DNA of 64,000 bases from Thermoproteota archaeon (GCA_032249235.1 JAVVGF010000004.1:32001-96000), one strand, 5' to 3'. Shown: positions 1-49,268, counted from the first letter of the stretch. Notes: generated by a model from the sequence alone, not told the origin. Translations and numbers: made by a program.

Positions 1-33
1 TTCTTTAAAAATAAGGGTTATTAAAGCTTGACA

Positions 34-107
34 TGGGCCGGCCCGGATTTGAACCGGGGACCTTTACCGCGTCAGGGTAACATCCTTCCAGGCTAGACGA
101 CCGGCCC
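34..107 (-). tRNA. tRNA-Val(GAC)
   Basis: Reverse complement GGGCCGG...CCGGCCC-A; anticodon arm TTACC-CT GAC GC-GGTAA; T arm GGTTCAAATCC. Confidence 0.95.
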
Positions 108-117
108 ATAGAAAACA

Positions 118-189
118 TGGACCGGGAGGGATTCGAACCCTCGACCTTCCGCACGCCAAGCGGACATTCTACCACTGAACTACCGGCCC
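118..189 (-). tRNA. tRNA-Ala(GGC)
   Basis: GGGCCGG/CCGGTCC-A acceptor with G3:U70; anticodon arm TCCGC-TT GGC GT-GCGGA. Confidence 0.95.
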
Positions 190-211
190 ACCCAAATAAT
201 TTAGAATGATC

Positions 212-18084: not shown

Positions 18085-18522
18085 ATGGGTAAATCACCTG
18101 CAGGCTTATATGCGGCTCGTAAGCTAGTTAAGAAAAGACAAAAATTTAGATGGAGTAAGATAACTTACAAAAGAAGAGTTCTAAGATTAAAAGAAAAATT
18201 CGATCCTCTTGAAGGAGCTCCACAAGCAAGGGGTATAGTTATAGAAAAAGTAGGTGTTGAATCAAGACAACCTAACTCTGCTGTTAGAAAATGCGTAAGA
18301 GTTCAGCTAGTTAAGAATGGTAAGCAAATAACAGCTTTCGTTCCTAAAGATGGCGCTCTCAATATAATTAGTGAGCATGATGAAGTTATTGTTGAAGGAA
18401 TAGGAGGTCCTCAAGGAAGAGCATATGGAGACTTACCGGGAGTGAGATGGAAGGTTGTAAAAGTAAACGGTGTCGCATTAAGTGAAATATTAAAAGGTAA
18501 AAAACAAAAACCACAGAGATGA
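18085..18522 (+). CDS. rps12: 30S ribosomal protein uS12
   Basis: [22 protein letters not shown]. Confidence 0.98.
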
Positions 18523-19103
18523 GCCAAATAGTAAACCAGCCTAAAATTCTAGTATTTGGTAAATGGAGTACAGATAATATTGTTATTAACGATCCTGCAC
18601 TTAGAAGATACATTTGTCTTAAACCGATGCATGCCCCACATTTAGCTGGCAGATATGCAAATAAGCGCTTTGGAAAAAGTGAAGTACCAATATATGAAAG
18701 ACTTGCAAATCATTTAATGAAAAAAGGAAGAAATCAAGGTAAAAAACTGAAAGCATTGAACATCGTAAGAAAAGCTTTTACAATAATTGAAAGTAGAACT
18801 AAAGAAAATCCTATACAAATTTTAGTTAGAGCTATTGAAAATGCTTCACCTAGAGAAGAGACAACAAGAATATTGCTAGGAGGTATAGTTTACCATGTTG
18901 CAGTCGATAGTGCACCTCAAAGAAGAGTTGATTTAGCATTGAGATGGATTTGTGAAGGAGCAAGATTATCTTCCTTTAATAATCCTAAGCCTATTGAAGA
19001 ATCTTTAGCAGATGAATTAATTTTAGCGGCAAATAACGATAGTAGATCTTATGCGATTAGGAAAAAAGAAGAAGTTGAAAGAATTGCCCTTGCATCACGT
19101 TAA
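18519..19103 (+). CDS. rps7: 30S ribosomal protein uS7
   Basis: PREETTR, AVD.APQRRVD, ERIA.ASR. Confidence 0.98.
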
Positions 19104-19146
19104 AAATTTATAAATAGATAAAAACAAATAATCAATACGTTCGCTC

Positions 19147-20442
19147 ATGGCGGAGAAAAAACCACATTTGAATTTGATAGTGGCAGGACATGTAGATCAT
19201 GGAAAATCAACTACTACAGGCCACATACTAACTCTTTTAGGTGTAGTGGATAAAAAGAGACTTGCAGAATTAGAAGAAGAAGCGAAGAAAAGAGGAAAAG
19301 AATTCGCGAAATATGCTTGGATCTTAGATACATATAAAGAAGAAAGGGAAAGAGATATGACGATAGATCTTACTTTCTTGAAATTCGAAACCAAAAAATA
19401 TTTCTTCACAATAATCGATGCTCCAGGTCATAGAGATTTCGTTAAAAACATGGTAACAGGTGCTTCGCAAGCTGATGCTGCATTATTAGTCGTTTCAGCA
19501 AAGAAGGGAGAATTTGAAGCTGGAATAGGAGCAACAGGACAAACAAGGGAACACGCTTTCTTATTGAGGACAATGGGAGTAAATCAAATAATCGTAGCTA
19601 TTAATAAAATGGACGATCCTTCAGTGAATTGGAGCAAAGAAAGATTTGAAGAAGTAAGGAAAGGCATTCTTGATCTTTTAAGACAAGTAGGTTATCCAGT
19701 TGAAAAAATTAGAGTAATTCCAATTTCAGCATGGTATGGTGATAATTTAGTAGAAAGAAGTAGCAATACTCCATGGTATAATGGACCTACTTTGGCTGAA
19801 GCATTCGATGAATTAGTTGTTCCTCCTAGACCTGTAGATAAACCTTTAAGGATACCTGTTGAAGCTGTATATTCAATAACTGGAGTAGGAACTGTTCCTG
19901 TCGGAAAAGTAGAAACAGGCAGACTAAGAGTAGGAGATGTTGTTGTAGTCATGCCCAGTGGTAAGAAAGGCGAAGTTAGATCTATAGAGACCCATCATAC
20001 ACCAATACAAGAAGCCATTCCTGGAGATAATATAGGTTTCAACGTTAAAGGTCTAGAAAAAACAGATGTAAAAAGAGGAGATGTTTTCGGCCCTGTCGAT
20101 AATCCTCCTACAGTTGCTAGTGCAGTTATCGCTAGAATATTCGTAATCTATCATCCTACATCAATAGCAGTAGGCTATACTCCTGTTATGCATATTCACA
20201 CAGCTACAGGGCCTGTTAAATTTGAAGAAATTCAAAAGAAATTAGATCCAAGAACAGGCTCAACTATAGAGGAGAATCCTAAGTTCATTAAACAAGGAGA
20301 TGCTGCAATAGTTAAATTAAGACCAATAAAGCCTATGATAATCGAAAAATATTCAGATTTTCCAGGTCTTGGTAGATTTGCTATTAGAGATATGGGTAGG
20401 ACTATTGCTGCAGGAGTTGTTCTAGACGTAATTAAAGCATAA
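19147..20442 (+). CDS. tuf: Elongation factor 1-alpha
   Basis: GHVDHGKST, DAPGHRDF, NKMD, GRFAIRDMG. Confidence 0.99.
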   Translation: MAEKKPHLNLIVAGHVDHGKSTTTGHILTLLGVVDKKRLAELEEEAKKRGKEFAKYAWILDTYKEERERDMTIDLTFLKFETKKYFFTIIDAPGHRDFVKNMVTGASQADAALLVVSAKKGEFEAGIGATGQTREHAFLLRTMGVNQIIVAINKMDDPSVNWSKERFEEVRKGILDLLRQVGYPVEKIRVIPISAWYGDNLVERSSNTPWYNGPTLAEAFDELVVPPRPVDKPLRIPVEAVYSITGVGTVPVGKVETGRLRVGDVVVVMPSGKKGEVRSIETHHTPIQEAIPGDNIGFNVKGLEKTDVKRGDVFGPVDNPPTVASAVIARIFVIYHPTSIAVGYTPVMHIHTATGPVKFEEIQKKLDPRTGSTIEENPKFIKQGDAAIVKLRPIKPMIIEKYSDFPGLGRFAIRDMGRTIAAGVVLDVIKA

Positions 20443-20750
20443 TGCCAAGAGTAGCGCGGATATATCTCTCTGCAACAAACATTAGCGATCTAGAAAGTGT
20501 CGTCAATGAAATAAAAACAATTGCTGATTCACAAAATGCAAGATTAGCAGGTCCTGTTCCATTGCCTACAAAAAGATTAAGAGTTGTAACCAGGAAAACT
20601 CCTTGCGGCGATGGAACGCATACTTTTGATAGATGGGAACTAAGAATACATAAAAGAATAATAGATGTCATTGCTTCAGAAAACGTGATGAGACAGTTAG
20701 CAAGAATAAAAGTACCACCATCCGTTAGGATTTCTATCAACATTAGATAA
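20442..20750 (+). CDS. rps10: 30S ribosomal protein uS10
   Basis: GPVPLPT, RKTPCGDG, RIHKR. Confidence 0.97.
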   Translation: MPRVARIYLSATNISDLESVVNEIKTIADSQNARLAGPVPLPTKRLRVVTRKTPCGDGTHTFDRWELRIHKRIIDVIASENVMRQLARIKVPPSVRISINIR

Positions 20751-20794
20751 AACTTAATTATACCTTCTTTTCTTATAGTAATTAGCCGGGAAAA

Positions 20795-20890
20795 GCCGGG
20801 ATACGAAAGCCCGAAAGCCTAGCGGACAAGGCGCAGGCCTTGAGAGCCTGTGGGCGTAAGCCCGCGTGGGTTCGAATCCCACTCCCGGCG
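20795..20890 (+). tRNA. tRNA-Ser(UGA) with a 13-nt intron at position 8/9 (20803-20815)
   Basis: Spliced GCCGGGAT|AGCCTAGC matches the 5' ends of the two other tRNA-Ser genes here; CAGGC-CT TGA GA-GCCTG; long variable arm; G73. Confidence 0.9.
20803..20815 (+). other. BHB-type tRNA intron ACGAAAGCCCGAA
   Basis: GC/GC outer helix, CGGG/CCCG 4-bp central helix, ATA and AAA 3-nt bulges, C-GAAA-G inner hairpin. Confidence 0.85.
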
Positions 20891-20920
20891 TTTTTAAATC
20901 TGTTTATTTTCTTTGTTTTA
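20891..20920 (+). terminator. T-rich terminator after tRNA-Ser(UGA)
   Basis: TTTTT immediately after the tRNA, then further T tracts. Confidence 0.5.
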
Positions 20921-37588: not shown

Positions 37589-37672
37589 CGCCGGGAGTGG
37601 GATTTGAACCCACGAGGGCAAACGCCCACAGGCTCTCCAGGCCTGCGCCTTACCTGGCTAGGCTATCCCGGC
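37589..37672 (-). tRNA. tRNA-Ser(GGA)
   Basis: GCCGGGA/TCCCGGC-G; CAGGC-CT GGA GA-GCCTG; long variable arm. Confidence 0.95.
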
Positions 37673-49184: not shown

Positions 49185-49268
49185 CGCCGGGAGTGGGATT
49201 TGAACCCACGAGGGCAAACGCCCACAGGCTTAGCAAGCCTGCGCCTTACCTGGCTAGGCTATCCCGGC
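49185..49268 (-). tRNA. tRNA-Ser(GCU)
   Basis: GCCGGGA/TCCCGGC-G; CAGGC-TT GCT AA-GCCTG; long variable arm. Confidence 0.95.

Follow-up and report, generated by a model that had tools for sequence, protein, structure and literature searches.

The tRNA-Ser(UGA) gene at 20785-20890 of the window, which is the whole 64,000-nucleotide stretch of Thermoproteota archaeon DNA analysed here, is interrupted by a 13-nt intron between tRNA positions 8 and 9 and carries in its leader a copy of its own 7-nt 5' acceptor strand. The CCCG of the intron and exon nucleotides 10-11 pair with nucleotides 1-6, so that the fold which presents the splice sites and the acceptor stem of the tRNA are mutually exclusive. 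We think it rather probable that the leader copy is a decoy: it would pair with the 3' acceptor strand and free the true 5' strand for the bulge-helix-bulge (BHB) motif. The case is built on the anatomy of the sequence, its conservation, co-variation and recurrence, the energies of folding models and the presence of genes for EndA and RNase P RNA.

All features of the locus lie on the plus strand. Exon 1 (20795-20802) holds tRNA positions 1-8 and consists of the acceptor 5' strand GCCGGGA (20795-20801) and U8 (20802). It is followed by the intron (20803-20815) and by exon 2 (20816-20890, positions 9-73), which contains the D arm, the UGA anticodon arm, a long variable arm, the T arm, the 3' acceptor strand TCCCGGC (20883-20889) and the discriminator G20890. 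A T5 run directly 3' of the discriminator (20891-20895) is the likely oligo-T terminator, and no CCA is encoded. As the original prediction had stated, GCCGGGA occurs twice. The leader copy (L), our proposed decoy for the 3' acceptor strand, occupies 20785-20791 and is separated from the true strand by the spacer AAA (20792-20794). It is the exact complement of the 3' strand (7/7), and the two can pair, as had been proposed.

The BHB pairs, bulges and inner C-GAAA-G had also been described beforehand, and every detail visible in the sequence was correct. Exon nucleotides 1-2 contribute to the outer helix (G20795-C20818 and C20796-G20817, equal to G1-C11 and C2-G10), while nucleotides 3-6 form the central helix, in which exon CGGG (C3-G6, 20797-20800) pairs with intron CCCG (20810-20813). 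The motif occupies the true acceptor strand, as claimed, and uses its nucleotides 1-6. Nucleotides 7-8 belong to the 5' bulge ATA (20801-20803, A7-U8-i1), and a second 3-nt bulge, AAA (20814-20816, i12-i13-A9), lies on the opposite strand. Read in order, the 13 nt of the intron supply the first bulge nucleotide, the C-GAAA-G mini-hairpin, the CCCG that is the 3' strand of the central helix and two nucleotides of the 3' bulge. The inner element at this locus is a single C-G pair closing GAAA (C20804-GAAA-G20809).

The BHB definition was checked against the wording of Marck & Grosjean as quoted in an excerpt of a 2026 preprint. At the window locus the 4-bp exon/intron helix and two 3-nt bulges are present, and removal of the intron gives a canonical tRNA. 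The intron reads as an archaeal BHB-type intron of the h-B-H-B form with a minimal h', and the BHB rule, together with the restored tRNA sequence, places the predicted cuts after U8 and before A9. Joining 20802 to 20816 restores a tRNA-Ser 5' end, in agreement with the original prediction: its first 16 nt are identical to those of both intronless paralogs, Ser(GGA) (starts at 37672, minus strand) and Ser(GCU) (starts at 49268, minus strand). The tRNA body is complete, of class II and with anticodon UGA, and all its arms are intact. Its parts are collinear within 20785-20890, as they would not be in a split or permuted gene. ARAGORN and the Rfam tRNA model (41.7 bits) call the gene start at 20809 with two non-standard acceptor pairs and thus miss the true 5' acceptor strand. 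A second ARAGORN call of 'Ser(tga) with intron' in the window's genome, G000 (C5:9502-9602, minus), looks to us like a Leu(UAG) gene whose anticodon loop holds an intron, and the window locus appears to be the only tRNA-Ser(UGA) gene of the genome. Another call, 'Ser(gga) with intron' (G000 C1:130874-130958), reads as Phe(GAA) with an intron. Both mislabels arise from the placement of the intron.

The genome comprises 1.43 Mb at 31.7% G+C and contains GCCGGGA 24 times on both strands, so the probability that an exact copy lies within 25 nt upstream by chance is about 2e-4. Of the genome's 45 tRNA calls by ARAGORN, the window gene is the only one whose 30 nt upstream include at least 5 nt complementary to its 3' acceptor strand; it has 7 nt, and the next-best value among the calls is 4 nt. 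Duplication at an integrase attachment site in the tRNA gene was considered and rejected. The copy is 7 nt long, the spacer measures 3-8 nt and no element lies between, and the neighbours are ribosomal-protein and EF-1alpha-like ORFs, not an integrated element. A row of S12-S7-EF-1alpha-S10-like ORFs (window 18085-20750; names read from the sequence) ends 35 nt before the leader copy, and its last member is the S10-like ORF at 20442-20750 on the plus strand, named from its translation. A tRNA-Ser gene downstream of S10 is also found in Sulfolobus, and this synteny may be old. Read-through from the S12-S10 row could give an additional, longer precursor. Elsewhere in the genome, tRNA genes for Ala and Val lie 8 nt apart (window 33-190, minus) and those for His and Ala abut (G000 C5:57326-57474); such tight linkage points to dicistronic precursors in this genome.

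The TATA-like box TTAATTAT is present at 20754-20761, as predicted, 23 nt 5' of the leader copy and directly 3' of the S10 stop codon; its role as a promoter is putative. The box spans -31..-24 when counted from the leader copy, as against -41..-34 from the true +1, and in 44 tRNA genes of the genome the G+C-poor promoter zone lies at -40..-27 relative to +1. If the box is a promoter, its spacing to the leader copy resembles the spacing between box and +1 in the tRNA promoters of this genome. The loci L002-L004 and L191, from the same genus, have an equivalent A/T box 23-24 nt 5' of their leader copies. A promoter PWM from 40 tRNA genes is weak (10/40 training genes peak at shift 0), and its best shift, no more than 3 nt away from the offset of the leader copy in 10/15 loci, is suggestive only. 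Oligo-T runs serve as terminators in archaea. GTTTT follows the discriminator directly in 6/13 Ser loci. The transcript probably begins at or just before the leader copy and ends in the T5 run, which would fit the placement of the box. The same placement is also compatible with the leader copy being an ancestral 5' end.

The runs that contain the stretch are labelled hot-spring metagenomes. Assembled metatranscriptome contigs cannot reveal where transcripts start or end. Contigs of the metatranscriptome X10 (share 0.27) cover 20600-20794 and 20853-20894 and leave the intron uncovered, and contigs of X20 cover 20600-20639 and 20810-20890 only; neither set shows a splice joint. The sole joint listed in RNA contigs runs from 20639 to 20810 with 184 other letters between and was set aside as a replacement in a relative's contig.

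The arrangement is conserved throughout the order to which the window belongs. The pattern of leader copy and acceptor strand matched 11 of the 12 species genomes of the order, and the full design (copy, spacer, acceptor strand, U, an intron ending in CCCG plus 2 nt, and R-GCC) is found in the same 11. In the twelfth genome, which is 67% complete, a Ser(UGA) anticodon arm is absent and the one match is a Ser(GGA) gene. The full design occurs in none of the 108 genomes of the class outside the order. When the looser pattern of leader copy and acceptor strand was run over genome contigs, it gave at least 120 chance matches in high-G+C bacteria. A second match to the pattern in one genome (L042, G011:C176:11785-11804; GCCGGGG, 5 nt, GCCGGGAT) may be due to chance or may be another interrupted tRNA.

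A metagenome scan keyed only on the 3' part of the gene, from the anticodon arm to the T arm, recovered 26 Ser(UGA) loci. Two copies of the acceptor strand are present in seven of them, and all seven have the 8/9 intron; five of these are identical to genome loci, and two (L191 and L201) are new. The other 19 loci have a single copy: a 5' intron is lacking in 15, an intron sits in the D loop in three, and L177 alone has one at 8/9. A second acceptor strand was found in 0/18 metagenome loci without an 8/9 intron. The Ser(UGA) loci L176, L192 and L200, from GC-richer relatives, have a 21-nt D-loop insertion in place of an 8/9 intron, and a single acceptor strand.

For comparison of the precursors an anchored table was used, because MAFFT mis-aligned the leader copies of the 13 precursors owing to their varying spacer length. 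The table covers 13 distinct Ser loci, and 17 loci for the helices and bulges of the BHB. The leader 7-mer is identical to the acceptor strand in 13/13 Ser loci and in two tRNA-Cys loci, and it pairs 7/7 with the 3' strand. Around it little else is kept among the 13 Ser loci: the spacer ranges from 3 to 8 nt without conserved sequence, and upstream flanks and intron interiors differ as well. The introns of the Ser orthologs are 12-24 nt long, vary in their interior and always end in CCCG plus 2 nt. All 17 loci have the four pairs of the central helix (C3-G6 with CCCG), both pairs of the outer helix h (G1-C11 and C2-G10) and bulge triplets equivalent to ATA and AAA. The BHB definition asks for two or more pairs in each of the helices h and h'. 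The inner helix h' consists of one closing pair in the ten loci from the window's family, extends to 6-8 pairs in L009, L205, L206 and L177, and is not predicted in L016, L017 and L204. The closing pair in the window's family is C-G, U-A or A-U, and L191 differs from the window at this pair by exactly the double change from C-G to U-A. Co-variation of the leader copy with the acceptor strand, which had been suggested as a check on relatives, was found in family f2. Here the stem is GCCGGGG/CCCCGGC instead of GCCGGGA/TCCCGGC, and the leader copy is GCCGGGG too, so that A7:U has become G7:C in step with the leader. This co-variation concerns one position of the stem and goes back to no more than two or three evolutionary events.

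Introns at position 8/9 also occur beyond the order. A scan of the phylum (401 genomes) for an acceptor strand, U and an intron, in which a leader copy was not required, returned 16 places. The further real cases among them are a tRNA-Cys in two genomes and a tRNA(CAU) in one. Judged by eye, four places (G065:C15, G109, G408 and G274) are chance matches outside tRNAs, and three (G156, G219 and G065:C40) are ordinary tRNAs in which an 8/9 intron is absent. The tRNA-Cys(GCA) is found in both genomes of genus g98 (2/18 of another family) and combines an exact leader copy, GCCGGGG, with an 8/9 intron. Its spacer is 4 nt and its intron 23 nt long, and its inner helix shows a change from C-G to U-A between both genomes. 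The D arm of the tRNA-Cys loci L205 (G220) and L206 (G365), minus 1442-1558, is Ser-like (GGCCGAGC...), and a Ser gene may have been the source of both the 5' part of this tRNA-Cys and its intron module. The tRNA(CAU) occurs in 1/26 genomes of its order (G133) and has an 8/9 BHB intron with the leader sequence GCCGG directly upstream. The metagenome Ser(UGA) locus L177 (minus, about 151-304) is GC-rich, encodes CCA and has a 26-nt 8/9 BHB intron as well as a second insertion in the D loop; it has no leader copy. This means that the copy is not universally required, or that the L177 gene is dead. When the BHB is enforced in the model of L177, the leader pairs with the D-loop insertion and nucleotides 12-15 and so extends the outer BHB helix, which may represent a different leader-based solution.

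The 8/9 intron site is not unique to this genome, since introns also lie there in tRNA-Cys, tRNA(CAU) and a metagenome Ser(UGA). Its association with a leader partner for the 3' strand is nevertheless striking: across the lineages with 8/9 introns, this partner is exact in two, partial in one and absent in one. In an 8/9 BHB, G10 must face C2 and the intron must be able to pair with nucleotides 3-6, and a GCCGGGR acceptor is common to all cases. Given this shared acceptor and these sequence needs, the cases may stem from one module that has spread and may not be independent inventions.

The two competing folds were compared with ViennaRNA nearest-neighbour models, which treat secondary structure only, at 37 C and 70 C. 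In the unconstrained ensemble at 37 C, the wild-type RNAs show L:3'-strand pairing with a probability of 0.80-1.00 and pairing of the true stem of at most 0.011. When the copy is absent, the true stem exceeds 0.75 in 10/15 loci at 37 C and in 12/15 at 70 C. The central BHB helix has an unconstrained probability of 0.59-0.995 in 11/15 loci at 37 C. At the window locus it reaches only 0.20 (37 C) and 0.05 (70 C), though L:3' pairing stands at 0.95-0.97, and in the two Cys loci it is about 0.01, with a shifted register in competition.

The energy difference between the folds was taken as the ensemble G with the BHB enforced minus the ensemble G with the true acceptor stem enforced, in kcal/mol. 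For the wild type of the 15 exact-copy loci it is -2.1 to -9.2 in 14/15 at 37 C (+0.1 in L006) and +0.7 to -6.4 at 70 C. Replacement of the leader copy by A7 changes it to +3.2 to +9.3 (37 C) and +3.3 to +7.9 (70 C), and RNA that starts from +1 gives +6.8 to +11.5 and +4.9 to +9.2, respectively. The locus with a partial copy, L204, has +6.3 as wild type and +17.5 when cut at +1 at 37 C (+3.5 and +11.7 at 70 C). For L177, which has no copy, the corresponding values are +5.3 and +8.4 at 37 C and +4.3 and +6.5 at 70 C. In these models, seven leader nucleotides determine whether the BHB or the acceptor stem of the cloverleaf wins. When the RNAs are spliced in silico with the leader attached, L:3' pairing is still favoured by 1.6-10 kcal/mol in 14/15 loci (37 C), so the return to the true stem needs forces outside secondary structure. 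This hand-over might be driven by tertiary contacts in the tRNA, by modification or by RNase P capturing the RNA; none of them is part of the model. The strand-exchange switch that had been proposed thus stands in one half, in that the leader copy sets the favoured fold in the models, and lacks a driving force in the model for the other half, the return.

The genome encodes machinery of the kind that such an intron would need. Two EndA (PF01974) genes are present, at G000:C2:141127-141366 and C5:39544-39798. One EndA protein, of 183 aa, is alpha-like and of the catalytic type with Tyr/His/Lys motifs; among proteins of solved structure it is closest to the catalytic alpha subunits of crenarchaeal heterotetramers (3p1z_B, 5.5e-37). 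The other, of 178 aa, is beta-like, matches the structural half of fused enzymes and by our reading has Glu/Ala at the position of the catalytic His. Its gene is followed by an overlapping ORF for a 295-aa membrane protein. The 183-aa and 178-aa subunits would form a heterotetramer of the crenarchaeal type. Excerpts of two papers report that EndA of this two-subunit type cleaves introns at non-canonical positions (PMC4033280, PMC5829648). An archaeal RNase P RNA gene is also present (135.7 bits).

From these observations we infer the start of the transcript, L:3' pairing in vivo, splicing and an order of events. Transcription would first yield the leader copy together with the true strand and the intron, and the local BHB hairpin could form. 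The 3' strand would emerge about 85 nt later and pair with the free leader copy, and it would not need to invade the hairpin. With the 3' strand occupied by the decoy, the competitor is removed, and the hairpin that presents both 3-nt bulges would therefore persist. EndA would then cut after U8 and before A9, and a ligase would join the exons. After ligation the true strand would displace the decoy on the 3' strand, and RNase P would remove the leader copy together with the spacer. Were RNase P to cut at the true +1 beforehand, the model would turn against the splice-competent fold by 7-11 kcal/mol, so splicing should precede the final 5' cut. The available part of the study on M. kandleri, the one archaeon with a measured order, describes the trimming of ends before intron removal (Su, Tripp & Randau 2013, PMC3695527). 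This is the opposite of what the design would require and counts against the decoy reading. The window gene would then be a programmed exception to the order in M. kandleri. In a variant that formally keeps the ends-first order, RNase P would trim to the leader copy and make a second cut after splicing. That the decoy also delays modification of U8 and A9 is pure speculation.

The pairing between leader and 3' strand could be real and yet have its main role in end processing or quality control instead of enabling the BHB, which we consider unlikely. It might serve 3' trimming, CCA addition or an initial cut by RNase P as a stable terminal helix, or it might keep unspliced RNA from passing as finished tRNA. 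Consistent with this, L:3' pairing is predicted at 0.80-1.00 regardless of whether the central helix forms, and the probable bounds of the transcript (the copy at the 5' end and T5 at the 3' end) would make it a terminal helix stacked on the T arm. The maturation of ends before introns in M. kandleri, as given in the available part of that work (PMC3695527), points the same way. However, an end-processing role leaves unexplained why the copy is restricted to genes with 8/9 introns (0/18 metagenome loci otherwise, and 1/45 tRNA calls in the genome), and it does not account for the large energy effect of the copy on the BHB fold. The two roles are not exclusive.

It is quite improbable, in our judgement, that the copy is a relic without a role, left beside the promoter as the original strand when a short duplication or insertion created the interrupted gene. 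Between the promoter-like box and the copy lies the distance usual for tRNA genes, which fits an ancestral +1; the sequence after the intron in L201 reads like one block inserted between positions 7 and 8; and L177 has the intron with no copy. However, an unselected 7-nt remnant in a genome of 32% G+C should decay, and this one keeps 7/7 identity to the acceptor strand in 13 Ser loci from two families, even though their spacers and flanks have diverged beyond alignment. The copy also changes together with the stem, and the tRNA-Cys of another family has this pairing partner alongside its 8/9 intron.

Very little speaks for the GC-rich 7-mer as a promoter or initiator element acting on DNA, for example as a preferred start sequence taken from leaderless-type tRNA genes. 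It lies at the expected start of transcription, but the other tRNA genes of the genome are A/T-rich at the corresponding place and have no such element, and neither its identity to the acceptor strand of its own gene nor their joint change would be explained. The prospect that the duplicate is an assembly error, named with the original prediction as a finding that would overturn it, is contradicted by contigs of X4 and X6, from two DNA runs of two other studies, which are identical over 20600-20853 with 0 differences and 0 gaps; these independent assemblies and the presence of the design in 10 further genomes exclude an assembly duplication. An artefact, or a tRNA gene in decay whose insertion is not spliced, would account for the defective acceptor stem called by standard tRNA finders, but it is negligibly probable for the sole UGA serine gene of the genome, which has all arms intact, shows compensatory changes in its BHB helices and has a design shared by 11 genomes.

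The decoy may also have a wider meaning. It is quite possible, though less likely than not, that it is a general and selectable solution for archaeal introns that hijack the acceptor strand, that it inverts the ends-first order, and that it travels or re-evolves with the 8/9 intron among tRNAs with GCCGGGR acceptors (Ser, Cys and CAU). The gene-specific order in this general reading would be splicing, then strand exchange, then RNase P. Core introns of archaeal tRNAs pose an old folding problem, in that the splice motif and the tRNA fold share nucleotides. Capture of the acceptor strand is the most extreme form of this competition, and it is apparently solved by seven nucleotides of leader. 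If the decoy reading is true, it describes a device of RNA folding that acts in cis and determines in which order a tRNA is processed, and it explains how such introns are tolerated in an essential single-copy tRNA gene. Only small lineages have the design, and its proposed function is read from sequence and models. For annotation it offers a signature: where the acceptor stem of a called tRNA is poor, a second copy of the acceptor strand lies upstream of the call.

Among known systems, the window intron would belong to the non-canonical BHB tRNA introns of archaea, with a predicted excision and a minimal inner helix. Like the introns of this class (Marck & Grosjean 2003; Sugahara et al. 2007-2009), it is short, has 3-nt bulges and a 4-bp exon/intron helix, lies outside 37/38 and occurs together with a two-subunit EndA. 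The consulted part of Yoshihisa 2014 (PMC4090602) lists intron positions 3/4, 20/21, 22/23, 25/26, 29/30, 30/31, 45/46, 53/54, 56/57, 59/60 and 'etc.'. Position 8/9 is absent from those listed there, in a source distinct from the primary intron catalogues. In the literature searched, of which article excerpts were covered and to which catalogues and supplementary position tables do not belong, there is no mention of an 8/9 intron or of an acceptor copy in the leader. The text of a 2026 Asgard census, in the part consulted, does not use the word 'leader' and places a few introns of the acceptor stem and its junction in the supplement. A leader strand that occupies the competitor of a BHB is, provisionally, undescribed in this literature.

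Split and permuted tRNA genes resemble the window locus in that a flank outside the tRNA is needed for the fold which EndA recognises, and in the parts of that work consulted their leader or trailer pairing builds the BHB itself (Randau et al. 2005; Chan et al. 2011, PMC3218864; Soma et al.). L177 may work in this manner. Unlike these genes, the window locus is one continuous transcript in normal order, and its leader would stay outside the BHB and occupy the competitor strand. Where a tRNA has several introns, their removal in a set order was reportedly described by Soma and colleagues in 2013. According to an excerpt of a paper on tRNAscan-SE 2.0 (PMC8450103), one intron must leave before the next BHB folds. 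There, as is proposed for the window gene, mutually exclusive folds impose an order of processing. The competitor in the window gene differs, being the acceptor stem, and the order would be that of splicing versus 5' end maturation. Bacterial attenuators and riboswitches work by strand exchange among terminator, antiterminator and anti-antiterminator. They likewise use duplicate or alternative partner strands to choose between two helices. Unlike them, the window locus has no apparent input from a ligand or a ribosome and is not a member of those families; its irreversible steps would be the cleavage and ligation of RNA.
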